A stretch of DNA of 64,000 nucleotides from an uncultured Gemmatimonadales bacterium (GTDB taxonomy: Bacteria; Gemmatimonadota; Gemmatimonadetes; Gemmatimonadales; GWC2-71-9), in contig CAVOGR010000007.1 of assembly GCA_963695555.1 (NCBI GenBank), positions 767,080-831,079 of the forward strand, given 5' to 3'. A model generated the notes under the pieces. The model was not told the origin of the DNA and made no database searches. It saw nothing but the letters and a program-made list of their open reading frames with translations. Both the position numbers and the translations under genes were made by a program. Shown piece by piece: positions 1-42,848 of this stretch. Numbering within the stretch: position 1 is the stretch's first letter; every line of letters starts with the position of its first letter.

Positions 1-1095
<1,095 letters not shown>

Positions 1096-1277
1096 CGGGG
1101 TCCGAGGCTCGAAAATGTGACGGCTGAGAGGCAGGCAAAACGAACCGTTAAATATACCCGCACCGAGGCCACCGGGGCAACCACCGGGCCGGTGAGTAAC
1201 TCCATATTGGTCAACGGGTTATACCGGCGGTTTCCGGCCTCGCACGGCCGACGGTTTCGCCCCGATCGCGGGGTGCC

Positions 1278-4200
1278 TCAGGGCCGTGGTCGGACGCGCC
1301 TGAAACCGGGAAGCAGGGCCGGCAAGACCACGAGGGCCGCCAGGGTGCCGGCAGCCACGCCGCCGGTCGTAGCCAGCGCAATCGACCCAAAGAGGCTGTC
1401 CGACTCGGTCCCGATGGCGAGCGGGAGCAGGCTGGCCAAGGTGGTCAGGGTGACCAACACGATCATGCCGGCACGATCGCGGCAGGCGGACACGACTTCC
1501 TGCTTGGTGAGCCCAGCCCTTCCGGTTTGCGCGAGCCGCCGACGGCGCTTTTCGAGCGCCGCGTCGATCAACAGGATCGCCTGGTTGACCGCGAGGCCCA
1601 CCACCAGAATCACCCCGACGGCGGCCTCACGCGTGAAGGCAGCCTTGGCAATCCAAAAGGCCGCCCCGACTCCACCCAACGCCAACGGCAGGCTCAGGAA
1701 CACTACGCCCGCCGCCCACACCGAATCGAACACCATCGCCACCACGAGAATCACCAGCGTCACGCCCACGCCGAAGACCAGCCACAGCCCCTTACCGCTC
1801 TCGTCTTCTTCCCACGCGAACACCTCGTCATCGACCTGGTAGCCGGCAGGCACGCCGATCGATGCCATGAACGCGTCGTGGGTTCTCCGGGCAAGCTTGC
1901 TTGGCCCCCGGAAATCGTAGCTCAAAATCCTGACGTACTGCTGATCTTCCCGGCTGATGTTGCTGAGGGTTTCGCGCTCACCCACGCGCGCCAGGTCGCC
2001 GATCCGCACCGGGGCGCTTACCGCATTGGGGACCACGGCGGAGCGCAGTTCGTCGAGCGTACGCTCGACAGCGCCCGCGGTCTTGAGTGTGACCGGCAAC
2101 TCTTCTCCGTCGATCTCGATTCGTTGACTGCCCGCAGGTCCGCGGACCTCGCGGGCTACCGCCGCGGCCAGTTCGGCGCCGGTGATGCCGTGCCGGGCCA
2201 GGGCGTCGCGGTCGGGCTCCAACGTCACCGTAAAGGCCTTCTCGCGGAACCAGAAGCTGCCCGCATTGACATCGACGTCCCGTACCCGGCGAATGCGCTC
2301 CAAGCGTGCCTTGAGATCATAGGCCAGGCGCTCGACGCCTGAGAACGAATAGCCGAGAATCTTGATTCGAAAGGACACGCTGCCGCCGCCACCGAATCCC
2401 GAGCTGAAGCCGGGTCCCTGACCACGAACCGCGACCCGTGCCCCACCGATGAAGACCGCCCGCTGGGTCAGCGCCTCTTCGAGTTGGCGCGGCAAGGCGG
2501 TGAGTCCCGCATCCTTCTCGAACAGGACCTGCATGCTGGCGCCCCCGCCAAACCCGCGTCGCGTTCCGCCACCGGCGGTGACGACCTGCTCGACGCCCGG
2601 CACTCCCACTACGAGGGTTTCGAATTCCCGCATCCCGCGATCGAGGCTCTCCGGATCCGATCCGCGGGGGAAGCTCAAGAAGACGGACAGCGTGGTCCGT
2701 TGTCCAAACCAATCGCCCCACGAGGTGCGCGGAACCTTGGTGATGAACCCCCAGGTCACGAGCCCGAGCGCTCCGACAGCTAAACCGAGCGTGACCCAGC
2801 GCCACCGAAGCAGTCGAATCACCACCCGCCGGTAGAACCGGCTCATCCGTGGCCAGTGCGCCTTCGACGCCCCGTGCCCGGCGCTCAAGGCGGGAATCAT
2901 GATCACGGCCGAAACAACCGAACATCCGAGGGCCAGGGCGAACGCGGCGGCAAAGGGCATGAAGGCAGCGCGGGCATTGCCTTGCAAATAGAGGAACGGG
3001 AAGAGCACCACGGCGGTGGTCATGGTCGCACCGAGGAGCGCCGGCAGAATCCGGACCCCGACTTCCGTCCGGCCCTCGGTCGTGTCCGGCGCCCGCCGGA
3101 GCCGCTCCACCACGACGAGGCCGTTCTGAACCAGAATCCCAACACCCATCCCCAGCCCGGCGAGGGTAAGGAGGTTGGCGGGGATACCCAGGAGATACAA
3201 ACCGAGCGCCGTACCGAAGATGGCCACCGCCGCGCTGCCGAGCACCAGCAGCACCGACTTGGCATTGCGCAGCGTGACGGCAAGTACCAACGCGACCAGC
3301 ACAAAGGCGATCGCACCGCGTCGGCCGAGATCGCGCAGTTGCTTGGCCAGGTCGACGCTTTCGTCCGTGGCGACGGAGAGGCGGAGCCCTTCGGGCAGGG
3401 CGGGTTCGAGCTCGTTCATCAGACGTCGAACCCCCGCCGCGGTCTTGATCGCGTCCGCCCCGGGCAACCGCGAAATGCGCATCGAGACGGCGGGGCGACC
3501 GTTGATTCGATAGAAGCTGCCTCTGGCATCTTCCTCCTGCCGAATCGACGTGATGTCGGACAATTGATAGACCAACCCGCCCGCTCCGCGCACGGGCAAT
3601 CGGCCGAGATCGTCGAGCGCTCCGGGCTGATCGCGGAGCACGACGCGTCGTTCCGTCGCGCCGGCCTGGTCCTCACCCAGCGAGCGGACCACCCGCGACT
3701 GCCCCAGTACCCGCAAGAGTTCCGCGGGGCTGATGTCGAGCTGCCGCAGCTGGACCGGGTTGTACGACACCGATACGCCCAAGTCGGCCCCGCCCGATGG
3801 CTCGCCGACGGCCACGCCGGGAATTGCGCTCACCCGGGGAAGGATGCGTTCGCGCGCAATGCGCTCGAGGGCGCCGGGAGTGTAGGGACCGGACAGGGTG
3901 TACTCGAGCAGCGGGACTTCGTCCAGTTCCTCGGGCACGAAGTTGGTGACCGAGGCTGGCGTCGTCCCCGGCGGGAACTCCGGACGCAGCAGCTCGAGGC
4001 GCTCGAGAATTCCCAACCGTGCCATCTGCACGTTTGCGTCGGGCTCGAGCTCGACCTCGAGCGACGCGAAGCCCTCGCGCGATTCGCTCGACGTCTTCTT
4101 GACGCCCCGGACTGCTTGGGTAGCCGCCTCGACGGGGGCGGTGAGATACATTTCGACCAGTTCGGCCGCCGAGCCGGGCCAACCGATGGTAATCTGCAGG

Positions 4201-4325
4201 CGCGGCAGCTCGACCGTCGTCTTGGTGGCAAGCGGTAGCCGCGTGAACGCTACCGCTCCCGCGAGAATAATGGCGACCGCAACGGCCCAGATCACCGCCG
4301 GCCGTCGGACAGCCCACCCGATCAC
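1278..4325 (-). CDS. RND efflux permease (AcrB/MdtC-like HAE family), 1015 aa
   Basis: Long ORF with N-terminal TM helix, large periplasmic loops and 12-TM RND architecture. Its start overlaps the stop of the upstream RND gene by 4 nt. Confidence 0.9.
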   Translation of the reverse strand: MIGWAVRRPAVIWAVAVAIILAGAVAFTRLPLATKTTVELPRLQITIGWPGSAAELVEMYLTAPVEAATQAVRGVKKTSSESREGFASLEVELEPDANVQMARLGILERLELLRPEFPPGTTPASVTNFVPEELDEVPLLEYTLSGPYTPGALERIARERILPRVSAIPGVAVGEPSGGADLGVSVSYNPVQLRQLDISPAELLRVLGQSRVVRSLGEDQAGATERRVVLRDQPGALDDLGRLPVRGAGGLVYQLSDITSIRQEEDARGSFYRINGRPAVSMRISRLPGADAIKTAAGVRRLMNELEPALPEGLRLSVATDESVDLAKQLRDLGRRGAIAFVLVALVLAVTLRNAKSVLLVLGSAAVAIFGTALGLYLLGIPANLLTLAGLGMGVGILVQNGLVVVERLRRAPDTTEGRTEVGVRILPALLGATMTTAVVLFPFLYLQGNARAAFMPFAAAFALALGCSVVSAVIMIPALSAGHGASKAHWPRMSRFYRRVVIRLLRWRWVTLGLAVGALGLVTWGFITKVPRTSWGDWFGQRTTLSVFLSFPRGSDPESLDRGMREFETLVVGVPGVEQVVTAGGGTRRGFGGGASMQVLFEKDAGLTALPRQLEEALTQRAVFIGGARVAVRGQGPGFSSGFGGGGSVSFRIKILGYSFSGVERLAYDLKARLERIRRVRDVDVNAGSFWFREKAFTVTLEPDRDALARHGITGAELAAAVAREVRGPAGSQRIEIDGEELPVTLKTAGAVERTLDELRSAVVPNAVSAPVRIGDLARVGERETLSNISREDQQYVRILSYDFRGPSKLARRTHDAFMASIGVPAGYQVDDEVFAWEEDESGKGLWLVFGVGVTLVILVVAMVFDSVWAAGVVFLSLPLALGGVGAAFWIAKAAFTREAAVGVILVVGLAVNQAILLIDAALEKRRRRLAQTGRAGLTKQEVVSACRDRAGMIVLVTLTTLASLLPLAIGTESDSLFGSIALATTGGVAAGTLAALVVLPALLPGFRRVRPRP

Positions 4326-7300
4326 TCCGCCCCTCCGACACCGGCCGGCACCGTCGCGGTTTCTTCACCGGACCGACGCCGACTCGCGGCACCGCCTTTC
4401 CACCGCTCCACGACGACGTACCCGGCGGGCATTAGAAAGAAGGTCACCACCAGCGCGCTCGCGGCACCGCCGATCACGCTCGCCGCCAGCGGCTGATAGA
4501 GCGCGCCACCGCTGCCGAACCCGAACACCAGCGGGAACACACCCGCGATGGTAGTCAACGAGGTCATGACCACCGGTCGGAGCCGCTGACGCCCACCCAA
4601 CGCAATGGCCTCTTCCAACGGGTGCCCCGCTTGGCGGAACCGCTCGATGGCCGCGAGCTTCACCACCGCATCGTTGTCTGCGATGCCGATCATGACGATC
4701 AAGCCGATGAGCGACACGGCATTGAGGCTTTGTCCGGTGAGCCACAGGGCGATGATGCCGCCGCCTGCGGCAAGCGGAACGGTGAGCATGACGACGAGCG
4801 GTGTCGTGAAGGACGCAAACTCACCGGCTAGCACCAGGAACACCAAGGCCACCGAGAGCACCGCCACCAAGCCGAATTCCGAAATGGTCCGGCGTTGTTC
4901 GATGTCGGCGCCGGTGAGTTCCCACGTGACACCGGGCGGTGCGCCGGCCGCCGTGAGGCGCTTGGCGACCTCCGCCGCGGCGCGAGCCGTGCCGCCGCGC
5001 TCGACCCCGGCTTCGACGATCGACACCGGCCGCTGGTTGACCCGCACCACCTCGATCGGAGCCCGCGTCTCCTTTACCGAAACGAGTTGCCCCACCGGAA
5101 TGCCGCCCACCTGTGTTGTGAGCGCCGTGGCCAGATCCTCGTTGGCCGCCCCAGCAAGCCGCACGCGAATCGGCGTCCGCCGGTCGGTTTCCCTGAGTTC
5201 CGTGGCCTCGACACCGCCGAGTCCACCTGCCAACGCATCCGCCACGGTCTCGACGTCGAGGCCGTGCTCCGCAATGCGATCCCGGCGGAATTCGATCTCG
5301 ACCACCGCTTGGGTTCCGCCGTAGGCATCGCGCACATCGACGAGAGTGGGAATGCTGTCGAGCACGGCCTCTGCCACGGCGGCCCACGCCTCCGCTTCAT
5401 CCGGTCTGGCGGCTCCGACTTCGACCCGCACGATGCGCCCTTCACGACCGATGAGGCTGCCGAATTCCGATTGCCCTGCAAGGTCGATGGCCAACGACCC
5501 GTGCGCCAGGTCGGGAACGCGAGCGCGCAGGCGATCCGCGAAGCGCGCGGCGTCGGTCCCGGCTCGGACGGGAGCGAGGAGTTGGGCCGTGCTCGACGAG
5601 CCCGGCAGAGCCCCGGACAACACCTCCTCGTCGGTGGCCTTTCCAATTCGGCTGTAGATCCCGGTCGACCCCGACTCCAGCGCGGCCGTTTCGATGCGCG
5701 CCACTTGGCGGGCGGTTTCTTCGATGGTGGTCCCATCGGGCAGGGTCAGCTCCACCACCAGGACCCCTTCGTCCACCTGAGGCAGGATTTCCCTGGGCAA
5801 CTGGAGGGCCAACACCACCATGAGGAGAAGGCCGGCCCCACTCAACGCGAAGACCCGCCCAGGATGAGCCAGGCTCCAGCGCAGGCCGCGTTCGTACCAG
5901 TCGCCAAACCGCCGACCGAAGGCGTCGAGCGCTTCGCGCCGAGCGCTGGGGCCGGCGGCTTCGGCCCGCGTCCGGGAGGGTGCCTGCCGTGTCCCGCGGC
6001 GGCGGCCGGCGAGGATGACAGGCAGCAATGTCAGGGCGAGCACCAAGGACGCGCCGAGCGCGGTCACGACGCTCAAGGATAAATCCCGGAACAAAGCCGC
6101 CGCGAGTCCGCGCACAAACACGATGGGACCAAAGACCAGCAGCGTCGTGAGGGTGCCGGCGATCAGTGGACCAGCCACTTCTTCGGTTGCGCGCACGGTG
6201 GCGTCGGCCGGCGACAGGCCCGTGTGCTCGAGTCGGCCGGTAGCCTCGGACACAACGATCGCGTTGTCGACCAGGAGACCGACGCCCAAGGCGAGGCCGC
6301 CGAGCGACAAAATATTGATCGACACGTTGAGCAGCTGGAGCAGGACCAACGCAACCAACACTGACAGCGGAACCACCAGGCCGATGGCGAGCGAGCTCCG
6401 AAGGTGACCCAGGAAGACCAGGATAACGATCAACGCGAGGGCGCCGCCGAGAAAGATCTCGCGGCCCAGGTTGGCCAGCGCAGCGGTGACGAACTCCGCT
6501 TGCGCCGCGACCACCGACATGGTGATGGCAGGAAATTCTTCCGAGAGCGTCTCGATCGTCCGGTAGATGCCCTTGGTCACGGTTACCGTGTTGGCGCCCG
6601 CGTCCTTATACACCACCAGCCCGACGGCCGGCGACCCGTCGAGCCGCGTCATGGTTTCCGGGTCGCCGCTCGCGAGCGTGATCGTGGCCAGATCGCGCAA
6701 TCGGGTGCTTCCGCCGGGCGGACCGACCGGCGTCTGGCCCACCTCGTCAACATCTTGCAGCTCCGTCAGCGCCCGGACCGAGAACCGGAACTGACCGCGG
6801 CGGATGGTCCCGCCCTGGGCCGTCGCGTTGGCATTCCGAACGGCGGTGGCAATATCGGAAGGCGAGAGGCCCAGTGCGCGCATCCGATTCGGATCAACAT
6901 CGATCCGGATCTCGTCCTTGGGCGCGCCGACCACGGCCACGCTGGCCACACCCTGCAGCTGCTCGAGTCGCCGGGCGTGGACTTCTTCGCTGGTGCGCGC
7001 GATGGCGCGGAGGGTACCCGGTCCCGTAAGTCCGATGACGGCGATGGGCCGCTCACCAGGGTCGCTGGTCAGGAGCGTGGGGCGCGTGGCCCGCTCCGGC
7101 AGCTGCGACCTGACATTGTCGAGGCGCTCGCGCACGTTGAGCACGGTCGTCGCCATGTCCGTGCCCCACGCGAACCGTGCCGTCGTCGTCAACTGCCCGT
7201 TCCGGCTCACCGAACGCAGCTCGACCAGCCCCGGCGTTGCCGCGATGGCCTCTTCGATCGGCTCGGCGACGAACCGCGAGACCTCGGTGGCCGCCGCGCT

Positions 7301-7456
7301 TTCGTAATCGGTTCGAATGGTGAGAAGCGGGAGGGTCACGTCCGGCAAGAGCGACACGGGAAGCCGGCTGAGCGAAACGCTCCCGACCAAGACGAGGGCC
7401 AGCACGGCCGCGACCGTCGTGACAGGCCGCCGGACCGCCGCGTGTGTCAGCGACAT
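4322..7456 (-). CDS. RND efflux permease (AcrB/MdtB-like), 1044 aa
   Basis: Paralogous RND transporter directly upstream of the other RND gene. The tandem pair resembles the MdtB/MdtC arrangement. Confidence 0.9.
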   Translation of the reverse strand: MSLTHAAVRRPVTTVAAVLALVLVGSVSLSRLPVSLLPDVTLPLLTIRTDYESAAATEVSRFVAEPIEEAIAATPGLVELRSVSRNGQLTTTARFAWGTDMATTVLNVRERLDNVRSQLPERATRPTLLTSDPGERPIAVIGLTGPGTLRAIARTSEEVHARRLEQLQGVASVAVVGAPKDEIRIDVDPNRMRALGLSPSDIATAVRNANATAQGGTIRRGQFRFSVRALTELQDVDEVGQTPVGPPGGSTRLRDLATITLASGDPETMTRLDGSPAVGLVVYKDAGANTVTVTKGIYRTIETLSEEFPAITMSVVAAQAEFVTAALANLGREIFLGGALALIVILVFLGHLRSSLAIGLVVPLSVLVALVLLQLLNVSINILSLGGLALGVGLLVDNAIVVSEATGRLEHTGLSPADATVRATEEVAGPLIAGTLTTLLVFGPIVFVRGLAAALFRDLSLSVVTALGASLVLALTLLPVILAGRRRGTRQAPSRTRAEAAGPSARREALDAFGRRFGDWYERGLRWSLAHPGRVFALSGAGLLLMVVLALQLPREILPQVDEGVLVVELTLPDGTTIEETARQVARIETAALESGSTGIYSRIGKATDEEVLSGALPGSSSTAQLLAPVRAGTDAARFADRLRARVPDLAHGSLAIDLAGQSEFGSLIGREGRIVRVEVGAARPDEAEAWAAVAEAVLDSIPTLVDVRDAYGGTQAVVEIEFRRDRIAEHGLDVETVADALAGGLGGVEATELRETDRRTPIRVRLAGAANEDLATALTTQVGGIPVGQLVSVKETRAPIEVVRVNQRPVSIVEAGVERGGTARAAAEVAKRLTAAGAPPGVTWELTGADIEQRRTISEFGLVAVLSVALVFLVLAGEFASFTTPLVVMLTVPLAAGGGIIALWLTGQSLNAVSLIGLIVMIGIADNDAVVKLAAIERFRQAGHPLEEAIALGGRQRLRPVVMTSLTTIAGVFPLVFGFGSGGALYQPLAASVIGGAASALVVTFFLMPAGYVVVERWKGGAASRRRSGEETATVPAGVGGAE

Positions 7457-7494
7457 GGCAAACCAGATCTACGGCCGGCCGGCACGGCTCCCGC

Positions 7495-8658
7495 TCATGG
7501 CGTGGTGGGCCGCTCGGCGACCGTCTCGAGCCGGACCGGCGCATCGTGGGTAAGGGTGAGATGACCCTCGATGAGCACGGTGTCGCCAACCGCAACCGGG
7601 ATCAGCCCCGACACCGAGTCGGGTTCCACCGCGGTGTCGACGCCGTTGGTACGGCCCGGGGTGATGTAGACCCACTGGGCGCGCCCGTCCTTCACCACGA
7701 AGACCAACGGGCGGCCGTCCCGCTCGATCACCGCACGGGCCGGCACCAGAATCCGGTCGGCCAGCCGGGTGGCCTCCAAACGCACGTCGGCGTACATGCC
7801 CGGCCGCAGGGTTCCGTCTCCCCGGATCTGGACCAGTGCACGGCCGGTGCGGGTGACGCTGTCGACGACCGGCAGGACGGTCGCGATGCGTCCGACGACC
7901 GGGCGATCCGGTGTGGCCGCGGTGGTGATCACGGCCTGGCCGCCCGGCTTGATCAGCGGAAGATCGTGCTCGAGCACCGACGCCTCGAGCCGGAGGTTCG
8001 TCATGTCCACCACGACGGCGACTTCCTGGCTTACACTGAGCCGCTCACCCACGCTGACCTGCACACGATCCACCACGCCGGCAAACGGGGCGCGGATGGT
8101 AGCCCGTTCACGGTCGAGCTTGGCTTGCTCGTATCGGGCCCGCGCGGCTTTGAGGCCGCTGCGGGTTTCCGCGTTCGCGCGCCGCTCGGGCGTCGGTGCC
8201 TGCCCCGATACGATCGAATCCGGCAGCAGGTTGTCGACGTAGCGGAGCTGCGCCTCGTCGAGTGCGGCCTCGGACTCTTCGAGGGCCAGGTCGAAGGGCC
8301 GCGGATCCAGCTGGACCAGGGCTTGCCCGGCCGCGACACGGCGGCCCGGCCGCACCAGCACTTGCTGGACCGTGCCGGTCGCTTCGGCGCGCAAGGTGGC
8401 TGAGGCCTCCGAGCGCACTTGCCCGGTGGTGGTCACCGACAGGAGCAGGTCGCCTTTCCGGACAGTCTGACCGACCACCGGCAGCGACAGGGTGCTCGAC
8501 GCTTCGGCGCCCTCATTGTCGTTGTCTCCCTCCGCCGCCTTGGCCTTGCATCCTGCCGCAAGCGCCGTCATCGCCATGATCAGCAGGAGGCCGGAGTAGC
8601 TCCTCAGGTTCGCCACGTGCATAGAGTTCTCCAGGCCAGGCGCGTCCACTTCTTTCAT
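7495..8658 (-). CDS. RND periplasmic adaptor / membrane fusion protein (HlyD family) lipoprotein
   Basis: Signal peptide with lipobox (LAAGC) followed by an adaptor-like beta/coiled-coil region. The ATG overlaps the TGA of the upstream outer-membrane-factor gene (ATGA), indicating translational coupling. Confidence 0.85.
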   Translation of the reverse strand: MKEVDAPGLENSMHVANLRSYSGLLLIMAMTALAAGCKAKAAEGDNDNEGAEASSTLSLPVVGQTVRKGDLLLSVTTTGQVRSEASATLRAEATGTVQQVLVRPGRRVAAGQALVQLDPRPFDLALEESEAALDEAQLRYVDNLLPDSIVSGQAPTPERRANAETRSGLKAARARYEQAKLDRERATIRAPFAGVVDRVQVSVGERLSVSQEVAVVVDMTNLRLEASVLEHDLPLIKPGGQAVITTAATPDRPVVGRIATVLPVVDSVTRTGRALVQIRGDGTLRPGMYADVRLEATRLADRILVPARAVIERDGRPLVFVVKDGRAQWVYITPGRTNGVDTAVEPDSVSGLIPVAVGDTVLIEGHLTLTHDAPVRLETVAERPTTP

Positions 8659-9962
8659 GAGAGCGGCCGTCCGATAATGGCTTCGATTTGCGCTTTGGCG
8701 CGCAGGAAGTCGACGCCCGCGCTTACCGCCGCTTCCTCAGCGCGTGTCAGCGATTCTTGTGACGTCAGCACTTCGACGTACGTGATCGAGCCCAAGCGGT
8801 AGCGTTCGAGCTGAACCCGAAGATCCGCCTGTGCCGCTTCGAGACTCAGCTTGGTCACGTCGATCCGGACCCGCGCCGTGGTCAGCGCTGCGAGCTGGGC
8901 CGTGAGGCTGGCCTCGACCTGGCGGCGATCGTCGGCCAGCGTGGCCGCCACGTTATCGAATAGTACCGAGCTTTGATCGAGCTGCCGCTCGCGATTGAAT
9001 CGATCGAACAGAGTCCAGCTGAGGCCCACGTTGATGTTCGAGGTTCGCTGAAGGTCGTAGTCGTCCAACTGGCTGCCGGAAAGCTGCGTATTGGCGCTCA
9101 AGCTCAAGGAAGGCCAATACCCCGACTTGGCGGCGGTGACTTGGGCCCGCGCCGACCGCATGTTCGCATCAGACGCCAGGATCCGGGGCGATCGCTCGAT
9201 GGCTTCCTGCAGCAACACATCAGGGTCCAGGTCCATGTCGGTGGTATACAGCGACGGGTCGTCCACCGCCGAGATGCGCCCCTGTTCGCCTATCAGACGT
9301 GCCAGATTGGCCTCTGCCGTAGCCAGTTGACGCTCGGCTTCGAGCAGCTGCACACGGGCCTCGCCGAGCGTCACCACCGCACGGAGCGAGTCCGACACCG
9401 TCGCGGCCCCGGTGCTGAGTTTGGCCACCGCGATCTTGAATTGCTCTTCGGCTCGCGTGATGCCTGCCTCCCGAGCCCGGACCAACTGCTGCCCCGCGAG
9501 CGCATTGAAGAACTCGAGGCTGGTGGCCAGCGCCACCTGCGCTTCTTGATCGGCGAGCGAGGCCTCGCTCGCCTCGCGATCCGCCTTGGCGGACCGAATG
9601 GTTGCCTCGCGGCGGAAACCATCGAATAGAATCAGGCTCGAATTGATGCCGAAGTTGACGCTCCTATTGGAGTTGAGGCCGGTGAGGAGCTCGCCCGTTT
9701 GGGGGTCGAGCCGCGATTGGGCCTGTGGGAAGAACGACTGGCCGGCGCCCGCGCTCCCGGACAACGACGGGAGGTAGGCGCTGTACGCCGACCGGACATC
9801 AGAGCCGGCTACCGCGAGCGCACCGCGAGCCTGAACCACGGCCGGCTGTACCCGCCGGGCCATGGCAATGGCCTCGGCCAAGGTCACGGCCCGCTGTTGG
9901 GCCCCAAGCGGCGCGACCAGGAGAAGCCAGCACAGCCCTGCCGCGAAATGGATTGGTTTCAC
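8655..9962 (-). CDS. Outer membrane efflux protein (TolC-like OMF)
   Basis: TolC-like coiled-coil/beta-barrel repeats. Likely GTG start near 9962 giving MKPIHFAAGLCWLLLVAPLGAQQ signal peptide with GGAGG 9 nt upstream. The track ORF extends to 10085 but its extra 41 aa lack a signal peptide. Confidence 0.8.
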   Translation of the reverse strand: MKPIHFAAGLCWLLLVAPLGAQQRAVTLAEAIAMARRVQPAVVQARGALAVAGSDVRSAYSAYLPSLSGSAGAGQSFFPQAQSRLDPQTGELLTGLNSNRSVNFGINSSLILFDGFRREATIRSAKADREASEASLADQEAQVALATSLEFFNALAGQQLVRAREAGITRAEEQFKIAVAKLSTGAATVSDSLRAVVTLGEARVQLLEAERQLATAEANLARLIGEQGRISAVDDPSLYTTDMDLDPDVLLQEAIERSPRILASDANMRSARAQVTAAKSGYWPSLSLSANTQLSGSQLDDYDLQRTSNINVGLSWTLFDRFNRERQLDQSSVLFDNVAATLADDRRQVEASLTAQLAALTTARVRIDVTKLSLEAAQADLRVQLERYRLGSITYVEVLTSQESLTRAEEAAVSAGVDFLRAKAQIEAIIGRPLS

Positions 9963-10171
9963 GACGCTCGTCACCTCCGGTCTCCATATCCCATTACCAC
10001 AACGATGCATTGGGACGCCGTGGCGTCGCTCCTGAGCGCAAACGACCTCACCTGTGGCCGATAGACGCCTGCGGCGGCCCAGCAATCGCGTTCAAGTTAC
10101 TGTGATATGAGTGAACCGGATACCGGTCCGAGCGGACGCCGGCAGGGAAACGACCGGGGGTTCAGCACCTG

Positions 10172-10957
10172 CTAAAGCAGCGGCGATTCGCTCGGCTCGA
10201 TCTCGAAGAAGGTCTGTTTCAGTCGATCCCAGGCCGCCGCATCAACGTGGGTGTGCAGCTCACTCACCAGCCTACCCCCGTCGGCCAGCACCGCGATCTC
10301 CTCCTCACCGAGCAAGGTACTGATCAGCCGGTCCACCTCACGCTGGAACCAGGCCTGCGCCCGATCCCCGCGTAACAGGCGCCGGCGCTCGCGACGGAGT
10401 CCCTTCCCCTCGAGCTTCACTACCCACCCCTCACCGTAGGGGTCCTCGTTCAACAACGTCGGCCGCCGGCCGAGGGACGCATTGTGACCCACCACCGTTC
10501 CCGACACCGGGGCACGCAGGTCGACGCTGCGTTCACCTTGACGCAACCGGAAGAGCGACTGACCACGGCTGACCTTGGTGCCCTTGGCGGGCAGAATTAC
10601 CGTGTCGACCGGGCCCAAGGTGGCCTGCACCAAATCGTCCGCGCCCACTACCGCCTCGCCATGTCTGACCCGGGTCCACGTATGGCCGGAAGCGATGGCG
10701 ACATTGGCGCCGAGTCGCAGTCCCTTATGGAACAGCATGGGTTCGAACTGCGCACCGAACCAGGTGCGGAAGGAGGGGCTCACGGCGTAGGACACAATTC
10801 CGCCTATTAACGCGACCCCGAAGACTGCGACCACCCCCGCCCGCACCATCAGCGCCGCAAGGCCCAACAGCGGCAATCCGACGACGAAGAGCGCCATCAC
10901 GACTATGACGGCTCCGATTGTGAGCGCCGTTCGATACCATCGGTTTTCGGTTCGCAT
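10172..10957 (-). CDS. Membrane-anchored glycine-cleavage H-protein-like (GcvH fold) protein lacking the lipoyl lysine
   Basis: Two N-terminal TM helices followed by a GcvH-like domain (SGHTWTRV ... NEDPYGEGWVVKLE). ATG near 10957 with GGAGG 8 nt upstream. The track start at 10984 is a TTG overlapping the predicted promoter. Confidence 0.7.
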   Translation of the reverse strand: MRTENRWYRTALTIGAVIVVMALFVVGLPLLGLAALMVRAGVVAVFGVALIGGIVSYAVSPSFRTWFGAQFEPMLFHKGLRLGANVAIASGHTWTRVRHGEAVVGADDLVQATLGPVDTVILPAKGTKVSRGQSLFRLRQGERSVDLRAPVSGTVVGHNASLGRRPTLLNEDPYGEGWVVKLEGKGLRRERRRLLRGDRAQAWFQREVDRLISTLLGEEEIAVLADGGRLVSELHTHVDAAAWDRLKQTFFEIEPSESPLL

Positions 10958-10999
10958 GGTGCAACCTCCGAGCCTGTGCTCCAATCCCCAGCTCTCTCA

Positions 11000-11016
11000 A
11001 TGCATGCCCCGCACCA
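11000..11016 (-). promoter_or_regulatory. Candidate sigma-54 (-24/-12) promoter for the membrane GcvH-like gene
   Basis: Minus-strand TGGTGCGGGGCATGCAT against consensus TGGCACG-N4-TTGCW. The GG and GC dinucleotides are at the correct 12-nt spacing, and the element sits about 45 nt upstream of the ATG. Confidence 0.45.
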
Positions 11017-11113
11017 CACCGGCCTGGCCTTGGGCGCGCGCTGGAAGTTCATAAATTGCAATAGTTTTCGCCGTTTCATCTGGAGCTGTGTAACCACCGG
11101 ACGTCATGAACCC

Positions 11114-11127
11114 TGACGAATTCGTCA
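11114..11127. promoter_or_regulatory. Perfect 14-bp palindrome TGACGAATTCGTCA, candidate enhancer-binding-protein upstream element (UAS/operator)
   Basis: AT-rich palindrome in a GC-rich genome about 100 bp upstream of the sigma-54 promoter candidate. It shares the 12-mer GAATTC(G/A)TCAAC with a second site at about 12084-12098. Confidence 0.45.
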
Positions 11128-11156
11128 ACATGACTGTTGAGAAGATCAACATGATG

Positions 11157-11906
11157 TCAGGTCGTCATTTCACGAAGGAGTTGCAGGTACCGGTCACCGC
11201 CGAGTAATTGGCGCATGTCGGTCAGGACTTGGCCACCGTCGGGCAGACATGAGCCGACCTCAGCCGTGTCGGCCAGGAGGTGGAGGGCCGCACGGCGTCG
11301 GAACCCGCGGAGGTCGAACTCCGCCTGTTTCCGAGCGTCCTCCGCACTCAGCAGCCCATTGGGAGACGTACCATCAACTGGGTCGAGTTCGGTGATCCAA
11401 CCTTCCCCATAGGGATCGGCGCGCACCGCCCGCGGGTCTCCGGCCAGCACTTCGTTCCATCGCATGACACAACAGCCGAATGGAGCGCCGATTGGCAGCG
11501 TGCCCTGAGCAAGTTCGATCTCGAAGAGGAGATCGCCACCGTTCAAGCGGCGCGGGATGCCTCCGCAGTGGACTGCCGCGCAGTCGCCGATGAGATCGGA
11601 GACAAAGCCGTCGAGGCCTATTCTCAGGGTTGCCCCGTCGGTCGGACTGGCCTGGATCCAGAGGTGGCCGGTAGAGTATCGCCGATCCTCTGGGAACTGA
11701 GCGGCGTGTCGACTGGGAAGGGCGGTCAGGTGGTCGGACCGGGGAGCGAGTGGCGCGTTGCCTCCACGGAGGGCGGCATCGAGCGCGCAGCCATCGCAAT
11801 CGAACTCGCGGTCACAGAGCCGGTAGGCCACCAACCCCGCGCTCATCCACACGCAGGGCAGAGCGCCTGCCGGAAGGATCCGGTGCTGCTCTCGGCTCAT
11901 CACCAT
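11157..11906 (-). CDS. GcvH-like protein (non-lipoylatable) with N-terminal Cys cluster
   Basis: YSTGHLWIQ ... LLFEIELAQGTLP ... ADPYGEGWITELDP aligns to the GcvH fold with Gln at the lipoyl-Lys position. N-terminus has C-x12-C-x5-C-x2-C (CDREFDCDGC). ATG near 11906 with GGGAGAG RBS. The track start 11999 is a TTG overlapping the promoter. Confidence 0.7.
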   Translation of the reverse strand: MVMSREQHRILPAGALPCVWMSAGLVAYRLCDREFDCDGCALDAALRGGNAPLAPRSDHLTALPSRHAAQFPEDRRYSTGHLWIQASPTDGATLRIGLDGFVSDLIGDCAAVHCGGIPRRLNGGDLLFEIELAQGTLPIGAPFGCCVMRWNEVLAGDPRAVRADPYGEGWITELDPVDGTSPNGLLSAEDARKQAEFDLRGFRRRAALHLLADTAEVGSCLPDGGQVLTDMRQLLGGDRYLQLLREMTT

Positions 11907-11995
11907 TGGCCGCTCTCCCTTGCCGAATCGCGGCCGGGAGGCGACCCGACGTCGTTGCGAAGAAGACTCGCCTCCCAACCTCACACCACCGAATA

Positions 11996-12010
11996 GCAAG
12001 TCGGGAGCCA
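11996..12010 (-). promoter_or_regulatory. Candidate sigma-54 (-24/-12) promoter for the Cys-cluster GcvH-like gene
   Basis: Minus-strand CTGGCTCCCGACTTGCT gives TGGC-N7-TTGCT, a good match to TGGCACG-N4-TTGCW. Predicted transcript start about 11985, leader about 80 nt. Confidence 0.5.
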
Positions 12011-12083
12011 GCAGACGGGGGGGCCGAGAAGGCCGCAGATTGGGCCTAACCCCAGAGGCGATGCGACCGCGGCTTCCCGTGTC

Positions 12084-12098
12084 GTTGAATTCATCAAC
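12084..12098. promoter_or_regulatory. Second copy of GAATTC(G/A)TCAAC upstream element (GTTGAATTCATCAAC) followed by TTCATTGAA near-palindrome
   Basis: AT-rich island about 90 bp upstream of the second sigma-54 promoter candidate, in the divergent region between the GcvH-like gene and the histidine kinase. Confidence 0.45.
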
Positions 12099-12179
12099 GG
12101 TTCATTGAAAATTCCTACATCGCTCGATACCGTTCAGATGCCTGCATATCCGCGTCCATGACGGTACGCGGGAGCACTC

Positions 12180-13886
12180 ATGACCCCGACGCTCAGGGCG
12201 CGTCGATCGCTCGGGATACGCCTTCTCCTTCCGCTGGCCCTCACGGTCGGCGTCGTCTTCGCCGTTCATTCGCTGGTCAACTATCGCTCCACGCGGGCGG
12301 ACCTCGTGGGGTTCCTCCGGTCGGCGGCGGACAACGACAGCGACCTCATTCGTCGCGCTACCCATGACGGCATGCTGCTCAACCGGCTCGATGATGTCCA
12401 AGAGCTCGTCACTCGCTTGGCCGAGGGTCCCGGTGTGGCGGCAATTCGGGTCTACGACAAACACGGTGTGATCGTGCTTAGCGCCCATCGCGAGGAGATC
12501 GGCCGCTACATCGCGCTCGATTCAGAGACCTGTGTGAGCTGTCACCAGCAAGAGCATACCTCGGACGTGGGCGAACTCGAGCGCAGCGGGCTGGCGCGTA
12601 TGCCTGAAGGGGTCGAAGTGCTCCGCCACTTGTCGGTGATCCCCAATGAGCCGGCCTGTGCGACAGCCGGCTGTCACGATCCCCCGGGCCAGAAGCGGAT
12701 CCTGGGGGTCCTCGACGTGGAGATGTCGATGCTGCCGGTCGAGTCCACTCTTCGGGCGGCCCAGCAACGCATCATCGCCACGACCTTGGCGCTGATTCTC
12801 ATCATCGGCGTCGTCTCGGTGGTGTTCTTCAATCAAGTGATCCACCGACCGGTGGCGGCGCTGCACGAGGGCACACGGCGCATTGCGGCGGGCGACTTGG
12901 AAACCCGGATTTCCGTACGCGGCCAACATGAGCTATCCGAGCTGGCCCACGCCTTCAACCGCATGTCGGAGGATCTGAGTACGGCGCGGCAGGAGCTCAA
13001 GGGATGGTCGCAGAAACTCGAAGCCAAGGTCCAGGAGAAGACCAGTGAGCTCCAACGGGCTCAGCGCCAGGTACTGCACATGGAGAAGATGGCGTCGCTC
13101 GGCAAGCTCTCGGCCACGGTCGCCCACGAGCTCAACAATCCCATCAGCGGGATGCTCAACTACAGCCGCTTGGTGGAGCGCGGCCTCGAGGAGCAGCCGC
13201 TCGATCCGGACGCGCGCGAGGAACTCGGACGGTACCTCCATTTTCTCCAGAAGGAGTGCAGCCGGTGCGGCAAGATCGTCACCAACCTGTTGCTCTTCGC
13301 GCGGCGGACAGGAGCCGACATGGAGCCGATCGATCTCAACGAGATCGTGGAGCGGAGCCTGATGTTGGTGCAACACCATCTCAAGGTCAGCAACATCGAG
13401 CTCAGCACCCGGCCCCTCACGGGCAATGCCATGGTCGTCGCCGACGGCGGGCAGCTCCAGCAGGCCTTGGTGGCCCTGATGGTCAACGCGGTCGAGGCCA
13501 TGGGCGGGGCGAGGAGCGGCGGCGGCGACGTCTTGAGCGTGCGGCTGGACGCCTCTGACGGTGAGGTCACACTCGAGATCGCCGATACCGGCCCCGGTAT
13601 TTCGTCGGAGGTCCTGCCCCACATCTTCGAGCCGTTCTTCTCAACCAAGGATCAGGAGAGCGGTGTCGGCCTGGGCCTCGCGGTAGTCTACGGCATCGTC
13701 CAGCGCCACGGTGGAACCATCGATGTGGATTCCGAGCCGGGCATGGGAACCAAATTCACCCTGCGGTTACCGCGCCAGCGGCCACCGGAGGCAAGCGGCT
13801 TCTCTGCCGCCAACCCGGAATTCGAACTGCACCCGGCCGGTGGCGCAACGCGGCCCGAAGGAGACGACCCCCATGAGCACGCATGA
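12180..13886 (+). CDS. Sensor histidine kinase with periplasmic domain carrying CxxCH and Cx4CH motifs
   Basis: TM1 (LLLPLALTVGVVFAV), periplasmic region of about 165 aa containing CVSCH and CATAGCH, TM2, HAMP, and HisKA H-box (ATVAHELNNPISG) plus HATPase_c motifs. Confidence 0.9.
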   Translation: MTPTLRARRSLGIRLLLPLALTVGVVFAVHSLVNYRSTRADLVGFLRSAADNDSDLIRRATHDGMLLNRLDDVQELVTRLAEGPGVAAIRVYDKHGVIVLSAHREEIGRYIALDSETCVSCHQQEHTSDVGELERSGLARMPEGVEVLRHLSVIPNEPACATAGCHDPPGQKRILGVLDVEMSMLPVESTLRAAQQRIIATTLALILIIGVVSVVFFNQVIHRPVAALHEGTRRIAAGDLETRISVRGQHELSELAHAFNRMSEDLSTARQELKGWSQKLEAKVQEKTSELQRAQRQVLHMEKMASLGKLSATVAHELNNPISGMLNYSRLVERGLEEQPLDPDAREELGRYLHFLQKECSRCGKIVTNLLLFARRTGADMEPIDLNEIVERSLMLVQHHLKVSNIELSTRPLTGNAMVVADGGQLQQALVALMVNAVEAMGGARSGGGDVLSVRLDASDGEVTLEIADTGPGISSEVLPHIFEPFFSTKDQESGVGLGLAVVYGIVQRHGGTIDVDSEPGMGTKFTLRLPRQRPPEASGFSAANPEFELHPAGGATRPEGDDPHEHA

Positions 13887-15240
13887 GGCCAACATCCTGG
13901 TGGTGGACGACGAATTCGCCGTCCGGGACTCGCTTTACAATTGGTTCCGCAAAGACGGTTACCATGTCCACGCGGCCGAGAATGCCACCGAGGCGCTGCG
14001 CGCCCTCCAAGACCAGGCGTTCGACGTCATTCTGCTCGACATCAAGATGCCCGGCATGGACGGGATGGAGCTCCAGTCACGGATCCATACGATCGATCCG
14101 GAGATCGCCGTCATCATGATCACCGCGTTCGGATCGGTCGAGACCGCCGTACAGGCCCTCAAACAAGGCGCCTTCGACTACGTCACGAAACCGATCGACC
14201 CCGACGAGTTGAGTCACTTGGTCCACCGAGCACTCGAGCAGCGGCGACTCCAAAAGGAGAACGTGCAGCTGCGGGAGACCATCGACGAGATCGGGGCCGC
14301 CGACACGATCGTGGGCGAGAGTCCTGCCATCCTCAAGGTGCTCGAGTTGATCCGCCACGTCGCCAAGACCGAAGCGACGGTCCTCATTCGAGGTGAGAGC
14401 GGTACGGGGAAGGAATTGATCGCCCGGGCCATCCACGCGAACAGCGCCCGGCGCTATTTCCCGATCGTGCCGGTCAACTGCGGCGCCGTGCCTAACGAGC
14501 TGCTCGAGAGCGAGTTGTTCGGGCACGAGAAGGGAGCCTTTACCGGGGCGCAGCATCGGCGCAAAGGCCGTATCGAAATGGCGGACGGCGGGACGCTGTT
14601 CCTGGACGAGGTCGGAGCCATCAACCCGAAGATGCAGGTCGATCTCCTCCGGACGCTGGAGACCAAGGAATTCACCCGGCTCGGCGGCTCGAAATCCATC
14701 AAGGTGGACTTCCGGATCATTTGCGCCACCAACGAAGACTTGGAGGTGGCGGTCGAGGAGGGGCGGTTCCGCGAGGACTTTTACTATCGCATCAACGTCT
14801 TCACTATCGAGGCTCCGCCGCTTCGGAGCCGGCCCTCCGACATACCCCTATTGGCCGAGCACATCGTGAAACGGCTCGCGAGGCAGATGGACAAGCGAAT
14901 CACCGAGATCCACCCCGACGCGATGCAGCTCCTGATGGACTATGCGTGGCCCGGGAATGTGCGGGAACTCATTAACGCAATCGAGCGCGCCATGGTCGTG
15001 GGGACCCCGCCGACCATCCAACCAGAGGATCTCCCGGTCTGGGGAAGGCGATCGGTGAATGCATTCTCCGGCGAATCGCTCGCTGACGTGGAGAAGGATC
15101 ACATCGCGTCCGTGCTCGAGCACACGGGATGGAACATCACGCGTGCCGCAGAAATTCTCCGGGTCGATCGCGTGACCGTCTACAACAAGATCAAGAAATA
15201 CGACCTCCGGCAGCCGGCGACCCGGGGCGGTAAGAAATGA
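13873..15240 (+). CDS. Sigma-54-dependent response regulator (NtrC family: REC + AAA+ with GAFTGA + HTH)
   Basis: MSTHEANILVVDDEFAVRD receiver domain, GESGTGKE Walker [17 protein letters not shown]-terminal HTH. The ATG overlaps the end of the kinase gene by 14 nt. The track ORF from 13711 is an upstream extension. Confidence 0.9.
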   Translation: MSTHEANILVVDDEFAVRDSLYNWFRKDGYHVHAAENATEALRALQDQAFDVILLDIKMPGMDGMELQSRIHTIDPEIAVIMITAFGSVETAVQALKQGAFDYVTKPIDPDELSHLVHRALEQRRLQKENVQLRETIDEIGAADTIVGESPAILKVLELIRHVAKTEATVLIRGESGTGKELIARAIHANSARRYFPIVPVNCGAVPNELLESELFGHEKGAFTGAQHRRKGRIEMADGGTLFLDEVGAINPKMQVDLLRTLETKEFTRLGGSKSIKVDFRIICATNEDLEVAVEEGRFREDFYYRINVFTIEAPPLRSRPSDIPLLAEHIVKRLARQMDKRITEIHPDAMQLLMDYAWPGNVRELINAIERAMVVGTPPTIQPEDLPVWGRRSVNAFSGESLADVEKDHIASVLEHTGWNITRAAEILRVDRVTVYNKIKKYDLRQPATRGGKK

Positions 15241-15314
15241 CTGCGCGTTCCGTAGGAAGAGCGGGCCGGGCCGATCCCGGTGGCACCGCCGACATGGCTT
15301 CATAGGGCACCGCG

Positions 15315-15854
15315 GTGCCGGTGCTCCACGTCGTCCCGTTCTATTGCGGCACGGCCACCGACTTGATCGATGGGTTGGAGGCGCGTCTGGCGCGGGTGTT
15401 CGGCGTCCGGGTGGAGCACCATCCGCCGTCGTTCGAGCCGGAAGTGGCCTACGATGCCTCACGGGGCCAATACAACTCGCGGATCCTGCTTGCCCAGCTG
15501 CTCCGTCAGGTACCCGCCGACGACTCACGGATCCTCGGCGTGACCGCGCTGGATCTGTTCATCCCGGTGCTGACCTATGTCTTCGGCGAGGCCCAGGTGA
15601 ACGGCAAGGCGGCCGTCGTCTCATCACATCGACTCGACAATGCCCTATACGGCTTGCCCGCGTCCCAGGAGCTCCTATTCGAGCGGCTCTGCAAAGAAGC
15701 GATCCACGAGTTGGGCCACACTTTCAACCTGGTGCATTGCCACAATAGCGAGTGCGTGATGACGAGCTCGATGCAGATCGACGGCGTCGACCTCAAGTCC
15801 GACCGGTTCTGCGGTCGTTGCAAAGCCGCGCTGCGGCACAACGGGGTGTGCTGA
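15315..15854 (+). CDS. Archaemetzincin-like zinc metallopeptidase (peptidase M54)
   Basis: HELGHTFNLVHCHNSECVMTSS ... CGRC gives HExxHxxGxxH plus a Cys4 zinc site typical of AmzA. Confidence 0.75.
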   Translation: MPVLHVVPFYCGTATDLIDGLEARLARVFGVRVEHHPPSFEPEVAYDASRGQYNSRILLAQLLRQVPADDSRILGVTALDLFIPVLTYVFGEAQVNGKAAVVSSHRLDNALYGLPASQELLFERLCKEAIHELGHTFNLVHCHNSECVMTSSMQIDGVDLKSDRFCGRCKAALRHNGVC

Positions 15855-42524: not shown

Positions 42525-42848
42525 AGCGTTACACCATGCTCTATTTCGTTGCATCAGACCGCGGTCACTGGCGTAGGTTCATGGACTTAAGATAACTATT
42601 CACAATGGTTTACACTATTTCAGCCCACCGGCCTCACCCTTGCAAGAACCATCCTCATGCGAAGATACGACCAGGGGCCGGGGTGGGGCGGTGCCGCCCA
42701 GCCTGGGGGCTCTCAAAGGTCGTGCTTTTTGGGACGAGGTCAACGACTTCCGCGTGCGCGCCGACAAGGACCGCGATTGCGACAGCCACGATCACTAAAC
42801 ACGATGCAGCGCTCGGCGCGAGTAAGCCCGAACCCTGCCGGAGCCACC

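Follow-up and report, generated by a model that had tools for sequence, protein, structure and literature searches.

A predicted sigma-54 switch with a heme-motif sensor kinase and two lysine-less GcvH-like proteins forms a conserved five-gene unit in an uncultured Gemmatimonadales bacterium

A 64-kb stretch of DNA from an uncultured soil bacterium of the Gemmatimonadales (hereafter the window; all coordinates are positions in this whole stretch) contains a two-component system facing two genes for proteins related to GcvH, the H protein of the glycine cleavage system. On the plus strand, a sensor histidine kinase with HAMP, HisKA and HATPase_c domains in Pfam (12180-13886 (+)) is followed by an NtrC-type response regulator (13873-15240 (+); Response_reg PF00072, 119 bits; Sigma54_activat PF00158, 240 bits; HTH_8 PF02954, 55 bits), whose start overlaps the kinase stop by 14 nt. 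Divergently, on the minus strand, lie gene B (11157-11906 (-), 249 aa, GCV_H 42 bits) and gene A (10172-10957 (-), 261 aa, PF01597 GCV_H 73 bits). These four genes had been described in an earlier note made from the sequence alone (the original prediction), and all were found again in their places, with domains matched by Pfam. A fifth gene, missing from that earlier gene list, belongs with them: it encodes an archaemetzincin-like M54 peptidase (15315-15854 (+), 179 aa, PF07998 80.2 bits for a cut-off of 24.4). The comparison of related loci supports the prediction that 10172-15854, with a GC content of ~64%, is one conserved five-gene unit, in which kinase, regulator and M54 are encoded on the plus strand, and B and A divergently from them.

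The related loci were obtained by searching one genome per GTDB species with an alignment of B, which yielded 80 loci, all from metagenome-assembled genomes (MAGs). Nine loci were added through protein look-ups, the first six of which were counted, L087-L089 being inspected separately. Counts are given over 81 non-redundant loci, in which six-frame open reading frames (ORFs) were scored against the proteins of the window. The loci come from Gemmatimonadota, Planctomycetota, Acidobacteriota, "delta proteobacteria", Eisenbacteria, Bacteroidota/Ignavibacteria, Chlorobiaceae, Wallbacteria and one Chromatiales bin, and the module is spread over about eight phyla. An orthologous kinase and/or regulator adjoins B in 72 of the 81 loci, and those lacking a kinase or regulator are mostly short contigs; an A-class gene is present in 66. 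Two layouts were observed, namely the divergent one of the window (27 loci) and a collinear one (44 loci), and the genes flanking the module are unrelated from locus to locus. A linkage that survives rearrangement as well as protein identities of only 30-50% is strong evidence for a functional unit. Co-localisation had been put forward as a check in the original prediction, and the outcome is strongly positive in both gene orders. In two loci, both long ENA contigs (L001, 5667-8162; L073, 6400-9800), kinase, regulator and M54 are split into several short ORFs, which look like assembly frameshifts rather than real pseudogenes.

Sigma-54 promoters follow the consensus TGGCACG-N4-TTGCW, and a position weight matrix (PWM) of this type was run over both strands of the window. 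The top match of all 64 kb was the -24/-12 element upstream of B, TGGCTCCCGACTTGCT (12010-11995 (-), 12.9 bits), which ends 88 nt before the B ATG and has its -12 GC at 11996/11997. This candidate promoter is identical or near-identical in L004, L007 and L009, and equivalents are found upstream of B across phyla. The corresponding element of A, TGGTGCGGGGCATGCA (11016-11001 (-), 11.0 bits), ends 43 nt before the A ATG with its -12 GC at 11002/11003. Orthologous A promoters of L010, L014 and L015 read TGGTGCG...TTGCA at an equal distance, and TGGTGCG is also found at the -24 region of A promoters in distant loci. Of 76 B genes, 39 have a PWM site of at least 10 bits within the 210 nt upstream, as do 26 of 79 A-type genes, for an expectation of 0.027 per upstream window. 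As B is internal to the collinear operons, a promoter of its own is not expected there. Hence, both -24/-12 candidates of the original prediction are present, PWM-supported and placed at orthologous positions in related loci, and the PWM scan that it had suggested gave a positive answer for both gene classes.

Two other matches were rejected. The sequence AGGCTCGGAGGTTGCA (10960-10975 (-)) was considered as an A promoter, but part of it is taken up by the GGAGG ribosome-binding site and it directly adjoins the ATG; the promoter position shared by the orthologues is 11016-11001, and this match was put down to chance. The same conclusion was reached for TGGACGCGGATATGCA, a TGG-N9-TGCA sequence at 12143-12158 (-), which lies upstream of the B activator site described below and whose spacing is shifted by one base in L009. 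A scan of 9700-12300 for consensus sigma-70 promoters and terminators returned nothing and is uninformative at 65% GC.

Upstream of the sigma-54 sites, a common element was found, an inverted repeat of 15 bp, GTTGA-N5-TCAAC, which also occurs in variant forms such as GTCGA-N5-TCGAC. The shared GAATTC(G/A)TCAAC pointed out in the original prediction is real, although it is not the whole element and represents the inner part plus one arm of this repeat. The putative activator site of B, GTTGAtgaatTCAAC (12084-12098), is centered ~95 nt upstream of the -12 and lies between the divergent B and kinase genes, with 89 nt to the start codon of the kinase. Another copy, GTAGGaatttTCAAT (12104-12118), is degenerate; it stands 20 bp away and is conserved in L009. 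For A, the putative site GTTGAtcttcTCAAC (11136-11150) is centered ~120 nt upstream of the -12, and a second, imperfect copy, GTTGAcgaatTCGTC (11115-11129), ~141 nt upstream; the centers of this pair (11115-11150) are 21 bp apart, and GTTGAtcttcTCAAC starts 7 nt past the B stop codon. With at most one mismatch, GTTGA-N5-TCAAC occurs in the 64 kb only at 12084-12098 and 11136-11150. An exact match to the degenerate form GTYGA-N5-TCRAC occurs at one more place in the window, GTCGAACTCTTCGAC (54630-54644, GTCGA...TCGAC), which is apparently unrelated, with no sigma-54 PWM site at a suitable distance.

The association of this repeat with A and B extends to the other loci. Exact GTYGA-N5-TCRAC matches number 99 in 1.37 Mb, and 56 of them are located between -330 and -60 of A/B starts, a region covering 46 kb (3.3%). 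This is illustrated by a density of 1.22 per kb upstream of A/B vs 0.032 elsewhere, i.e., a ~38-fold enrichment. Across loci, the distance between the repeat center and the -12 peaks at 80-140 nt, and repeats paired 20-22 bp apart, or two helical turns, were found in L010, L026, L030, L031, L035, L037, L077 and L079.

The kinase that faces these sites is organized as a first transmembrane (TM) helix, a periplasmic domain of ~165 aa, a second TM helix, then HAMP, HisKA and HATPase_c. Its periplasmic part contains the motifs CVSCH (residue 118) and CATAGCH (residue 160). All 66 full-length orthologous kinases have a CxxCH around residue 120 and a NEPxC-x4-CH around residue 165 between the TM helices, except that L046 has CxxCH at the second motif. 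A profile of the sensor domain gave weak but specific matches in the PDB to 3B42 (E 1.9e-5) and 3B47 (E 1.7e-4), which are heme-c PAS-like sensor domains from the periplasmic part of two Geobacter sulfurreducens chemoreceptors, GSU0582 and GSU0935; their CxxCH aligns with NEPxCx4CH of the kinase. As a single sequence against Pfam, the kinase gave sub-threshold matches to Tll0287-like (E 0.26) and sCache_3_2 (E 0.0044, 17.5 bits vs 28.4). Together, these data support a predicted periplasmic domain of PAS/Cache-like type, in which two motifs for the attachment of c-type heme are invariant, in line with the heme-motif sensor proposed from the single sequence.

Like the kinase, GSU0582, GSU0935 and the sCache_heme domains (DUF3365/Tll0287; PMC12889525) place a sensor with a covalent-heme CxxCH between two TM helices. 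The kinase differs from them by having two motifs, an extra CxxCH plus a Cx4CH that replaces the aligned CxxCH, and by its output, a HAMP-histidine kinase instead of the chemoreceptor output of GSU0582/GSU0935; besides, its domain scores below the Pfam thresholds for Tll0287-like and sCache. According to a 2026 preprint, heme-c Cache domains fused to signaling modules act as sensors of NO and not of oxygen, and stand-alone ones look redox-related (PMC12889525). These domains would be the closest analogy for the input signal, the kinase domain being a putative relative.

The regulator has the composition of the NtrC family, with a REC domain, an AAA+ domain whose translation contains GAFTGA, and HTH_8. 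It scores below every NCBIfam equivalog cut-off (AtoC 487 vs 714, ZraR 436 vs 760), and the best similarities of kinase and regulator in NCBIfam are to AtoS/AtoC and ZraS/ZraR, below equivalog level. The module shares with NtrB/NtrC, AtoS/AtoC and ZraS/ZraR the combination of a kinase with a REC-AAA+(GAFTGA)-HTH_8 regulator, as well as inverted-repeat sites ~100-150 nt upstream of -24/-12 elements, often paired on the same face of the helix. It differs from them by its periplasmic sensor with two heme motifs, by the operator GTTGA-N5-TCAAC and by its predicted targets, which are GcvH-fold proteins and, elsewhere, an NrfCD-type pair rather than nitrogen, acetoacetate or zinc-stress genes.

The M54 gene starts 75 nt after the regulator and is the third gene of the kinase-regulator unit. 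Its product contains HELGHTFNLVHC...C...CxxC, i.e., the HExxHxxGxxH and four-Cys zinc signature (HELGHTFNLVHCHNSECVM...CGRC in translation). In 56 of the 81 loci, an M54 gene directly follows the regulator. The protein resembles archaemetzincins by its PF07998 match, HExxHxxGxxH and Cys4, and is set apart by its position as the fixed third gene of a bacterial sigma-54 two-component operon. In other loci, 17 of 55 M54 genes contain an exact GTCGA-N5-TCGAC 51-99 nt before the stop codon (L002, L014, L015, L017, L020, L024, L026, L027, L030, L035, L037-L039, L041, L045, L064 and L066). These were rejected as operators: all are in frame 0 and encode a conserved V-E-(E/D)-I-D peptide, and their occurrence is best explained by this peptide together with GC-rich codon use. 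The M54 gene of the window encodes VDLKSD at this place and has no such match.

Both targets of the predicted switch have the barrel-sandwich fold of H proteins according to their GCV_H matches, and AlphaFold2 predicted the GcvH core with a pLDDT >90 in each. At the position of the lipoyl lysine, which belongs to an E-S-V-K motif at a hairpin tip, the alignment places E in A and Q in B, and the absence of this lysine noted in the original prediction was thereby borne out. Over the families, the position is mostly G/E/D/N, followed by an invariant Arg, in the A class, and mostly G in the B class. Neither protein reaches equivalog level as GcvH, with scores of 65.1 (A) and 47.0 (B) vs a cut-off of 115.85 for TIGR00527, and of 69.5 (A) and 56.5 (B) vs 117 for NF002270. 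Membership of A in NCBIfam GcvH_rel_desulf (NF045810) was also rejected (25 bits vs a cut-off of 150).

A and B are longer than single-domain GcvH (249-261 vs ~130 aa) and have additional N- and C-terminal parts. The product of gene A begins with a hydrophobic hairpin, a predicted membrane anchor. Its single-TM relatives carry a strongly positive cluster of residues directly after the TM segment, which places the GcvH domain in the cytoplasm. Instead, the product of gene B is soluble and has an N-terminal Cys4 motif, C-x12-C-x5-C-x2-C (PCVWMSAGLVAYRLCDREFDCDGC), which is present in 73 of 76 B-class proteins with the consensus PC(V/I)WMSAGLxxY(K/R)LCDRxFDCxxCPLDAALRG. At their C-termini, A and B both have a helical extension of ~60 aa, in which a DGG is invariant, and the two families are paralogous over 184 columns including this extension (hhalign 99.8%, E 1.4e-29). 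With E up to 10, Pfam gave no family for the Cys4 N-terminus and C-terminal extension of B and only chance-level matches for the C-terminal extension of A; when a profile of the Cys4 motif was run against the PDB, nothing but a chance match came up, ZnT8 at E 1.3. As functional surfaces, two places readily suggest themselves: the Arg that A carries at what was the lipoyl hairpin tip, and the Cys4 site of B.

The B family is sizeable, since its profile recovered 584 cluster representatives (50% identity) at E up to 1e-30 among 1.84 billion proteins. Wherever public sources name the homologues, the name is "glycine cleavage system H protein". In searches for homologues, one of which used an Ignavibacteria B protein as query, every row that named an organism was a metagenome or MAG protein, and most rows named none. 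In the neighborhoods inspected, no gcvT, gcvP, hdr, dsrE, lipoate ligase or macrodomain/sirtuin gene was found. A and B share the fold of GcvH and differ from it by the missing lipoyl lysine, the scores below cut-off, the TM or Cys4 additions, the DGG extension and the gene context. They also differ from GcvH-L of Staphylococcus/Streptococcus and LbpA of sHdr sulfur oxidation (PMC6067878), which are lipoylated, both by lacking the lysine and by having other neighbors. Another non-canonical H-protein architecture was seen among distant matches of gene A (P0066, P0068, P0071-P0074), where GCV_H is combined with a DGC domain (PF08859) in 272-289 aa.

Outside the window, the module has a conserved partner that had escaped the original prediction, namely a pair of genes for a HybA/HmcB-like and a HybB/HmcC-like (NrfCD-type) protein, found in 65 of the 81 loci. 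The pair occupies a stretch of 2-3 kb unmatched by window proteins, usually directly after the A-class gene. The HmcB-like protein (~290 aa) has an N-terminal twin-arginine motif of the RRxFLK type in translations and a 4Fe-4S dicluster domain (Fer4_11); its best NCBIfam matches are HmcB (340 bits vs a cut-off of 420) and also HybA. The HmcC-like protein (~410 aa) is an NrfD-family membrane protein with best matches to HmcC (381 vs 550) and HybB, and some loci have it as a fusion with a triheme cytochrome c7 domain. The order is A, hmcB-like, hmcC-like, B, kinase, regulator and M54 in a Bacteroidota locus (L062), with gaps of 1-17 nt; in L010, it is M54, regulator and kinase, then divergently B, A, hmcB-like, hmcC-like and A'. 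Sigma-54 sites are also found ahead of an operon-leading hmcB-like gene in L018, L075, L077 and L085. In its FeS and NrfD-family subunits, the pair resembles the HybA-HybB, HmcB-HmcC and NrfC-NrfD modules (PMC8076601). Unlike HybAB and HmcBC, it lacks catalytic companions, no hydrogenase, multiheme HmcA or molybdoenzyme accompanying it in the related loci, and it scores below the HmcB/HmcC equivalog cut-offs.

In L087, a second set consisting of a GcvH-like, a Fer4_11 and an NrfD-cytochrome c7 protein (2697-5950 and 6245-8697) lies beside a GAF histidine kinase and a LuxR-type regulator, on a contig that also carries a copy of the sigma-54-type module. The link between GcvH-like and NrfCD-type proteins is therefore independent of the sigma-54 switch. 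The NrfD-family review (PMC8076601) contains no mention of an association with GcvH-fold proteins. A literature search that included this review found no description of the combination of genes in the module, in agreement with the earlier statement that it is not a described system.

In the window, the position 3' of A on the minus strand is occupied by genes for an outer membrane factor (OMF), a membrane fusion protein (MFP) and two resistance-nodulation-division (RND) permeases, followed by gyrA, which is truncated by the left window end (Pfam assignments). The OMF start is a conserved GTG at 9962 preceded by GGAGG, which replaces the upstream TTG (10085) of the original gene list. Only three of the 81 loci, the closest Gemmatimonadales relatives, have the orthologous pump after A, and any RND component was found in seven. 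In four Gemmatimonadales loci (L018, L021, L023 and L078, ~170-6100), which have neither an M54 nor an A-class gene, a distant RND operon (RND 120-178 bits vs the window pump) is convergent with the regulator. RND pumps would thus adjoin the module twice independently, which may reflect chance given how common RND genes are, or be a weak functional hint. The 209-bp spacer between A and OMF (9962-10172) contains no sigma-54 PWM site and no GTTGA-N5-TCAAC. It has conserved sequence of its own, a palindrome ACCGGTATCCGGT (10115-10127) kept in L004 and L007 in a block also containing TTGAAC, which suggests separate control of the pump; this region may be the pump operon's own operator or promoter region. 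Given this phylogenetic distribution, the pump, presented as a component in the original prediction, was treated as a neighbor.

Taken together, it is likely that the locus is a conserved unit in which a sigma-54 switch governs B and A, with a possible NrfCD-linked role in other genomes. The regulatory circuit, predicted from the sequence and its conservation, is well supported, and the original proposal of a self-contained sigma-54 module, whose kinase and regulator control the divergent lysine-less genes, stands on the linkage as well as on the conserved promoters and element; the role of the GcvH-like proteins is no more than inferred. According to this scheme, the heme domain would report on the redox state of the periplasm, or on a small ligand of the heme such as NO, thereby setting the activity of the kinase, which would phosphorylate the NtrC-type regulator. 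The latter would oligomerize on GTTGA-N5-TCAAC, ~95-140 nt upstream of the -12, with paired sites two helical turns apart, and its ATP hydrolysis would open the sigma-54 complexes at the B and A promoters. Because the B site lies between B and the kinase gene, it may feed back on the divergent kinase operon; in collinear loci, where kinase, regulator and peptidase are 3' of the same sigma-54 promoter, positive autoregulation is implied.

What the products of the switch do can be proposed with much less assurance. It is possible, and we suggest it only tentatively, that soluble B with its Cys4 metal site and membrane-bound A with its cytoplasmic GcvH domain pair through their shared C-terminal helical extension, and work without lipoate as accessory or adaptor proteins on the inner membrane, at its cytoplasmic face. 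In most genomes, they might be co-expressed with, and serve, the HybAB/HmcBC-type (NrfCD) pair, a quinone-linked electron-transfer pair. In other phyla, A, hmcB-like, hmcC-like and B are spaced as tightly as in an operon, which argues for such a link. The lineage of the window would have retained the switch and the two GcvH-like proteins without an NrfCD-type pair within 64 kb, the RND operon being a lineage-specific neighbor; the quinone module may be elsewhere in the genome or lost. A bolder proposal is a serious possibility that we would stop short of calling probable: the window would hold a reduced copy of an undescribed, widespread membrane redox system, in which an orphan NrfCD-type quinone module has the lysine-less GcvH proteins on its cytoplasmic side, as genuine subunits or as obligate partners, and the whole, including the archaemetzincin, is switched by a di-heme sensor through sigma-54. 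If so, the H-protein fold would gain a lipoate-independent role in respiration or redox homeostasis.

Several points weigh against the preferred interpretation, a sigma-54 switch governing B and A. HmcB/HmcC-like genes have no match anywhere in the 64-kb window, and the role of A and B in this genome is as a consequence the least secure step. No terminator-like site was detected between A and the OMF gene in the scan of 9700-12300, so that some read-through from A into the pump is possible. The PWM was built from the published consensus and not from a curated matrix; the -12 of the A promoter is ATGCA instead of TTGCA (11.0 bits), and AGGCTCGGAGGTTGCA, overlapping the A ribosome-binding site, scores higher (12.3 bits). 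Heme attachment rests on the motifs and a weak profile match, with Pfam Tll0287-like at E 0.26. Moreover, a stretch of 64 kb does not allow one to claim rpoN or cytochrome c maturation genes for this genome, no search for them having been made; the evidence is computational throughout, and all related loci are from MAGs.

The main features could also be read differently. Single TGG-N9-TGCW matches are common, 24 being present in the window for 12.5 expected, and the third match at 12143-12158 is not conserved in L009; the -24/-12 elements and the shared repeat might on these grounds be chance similarity in GC-rich intergenic DNA. The comparative data already contradict this, as both elements recur at the same positions with a 20- to 40-fold enrichment in loci whose proteins share 30-50% identity, and we consider coincidence hardly credible. 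An equally remote option is that A and B are ordinary lipoate-carrying H proteins, or LbpA-type carriers, placed under a nitrogen-type sigma-54 control. Their PF01597 matches above threshold and the public label "glycine cleavage system H protein" would fit with it, but E or Q stands in place of the lysine here, and mostly G/E/D/N in the family at large, the NCBIfam scores are 65 and 47 bits vs a cut-off of 115.85, and the proteins are extended by a TM or Cys4 part at the N-terminus and by 60 aa at the C-terminus. Besides, gcvT, gcvP, hdr, lipoate ligase and macrodomain/sirtuin genes were not found in the inspected neighborhoods.

The position of the pump raises another question, since the two-component system could regulate the envelope or efflux, as BaeSR, CusRS or ZraSR do, with OMF-MFP-RND-RND as its real output and B and A as leader genes of a single sigma-54 operon. 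Indeed, the pump lies 3' of A on the same strand with no terminator-like site between them, the order B-A-OMF-MFP-RND is held in relatives down to 64% identity (L009), and a different RND operon abuts the regulator in L018, L021, L023 and L078. However, orthologous pumps are present in only 3 of 81 loci and any RND in 7, the pump of those four loci is a distant paralogue convergent with the regulator, and the 209-bp spacer has its own conserved palindrome ACCGGTATCCGGT in place of a sigma-54 site or repeat. Outside this clade, the position after A is held by hmcB/hmcC-like genes, and we regard an efflux output as distinctly unlikely. A and B could instead act primarily as feedback regulators or signal adaptors of the switch itself, as PspA does on PspF, with M54 processing one of them. 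The window and ~15 other loci have A and/or B, kinase, regulator and M54 without hmcBC-like genes; L002, L013, L024, L027, L039, L047, L063 and L084 are in this situation, all with both A and B. These loci define the minimal conserved core as the switch plus B and usually A. B is also the component most constantly linked to the kinase, and the M54 gene is predicted to be co-transcribed with the regulator. Such a feedback role is nevertheless unlikely: in L087, GcvH-like proteins occur with NrfC and NrfD under a different type of regulator, and in 65 of the 81 loci the genes are interleaved with hmcB/hmcC-like genes at operon spacing. We also know of no regulator with a GcvH fold, and this was counted against it.

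The interpretation preferred here, a conserved sigma-54 switch over B and A, has several implications. Its regulatory principle is classical, and its regulon and protein families are undescribed. Sensor, operator, promoters and targets are defined over ~8 phyla as a predicted regulon, which is rare for Gemmatimonadota, Acidobacteriota, Eisenbacteria and Ignavibacteria. Hundreds of proteins labeled "glycine cleavage system H protein" appear, from their predicted sequences, unable to carry lipoate and would constitute a misannotated family, which affects the reconstruction of glycine and one-carbon metabolism in these MAGs. The unit joins an orphan NrfCD-type quinone module, a bacterial archaemetzincin and a new Cys4 motif under one co-regulation. 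The association between the pump and the GcvH-like genes, from which the unusual look of the locus originated, would be an accident of local gene order. Finally, the module is widespread, cleanly delimited and experimentally tractable.

Elsewhere in the window, a second gene of the sigma-54 enhancer-binding type was found at 42591-44183 (+), with 257 bits vs the module regulator, which indicates that this organism has more than one sigma-54 activator.

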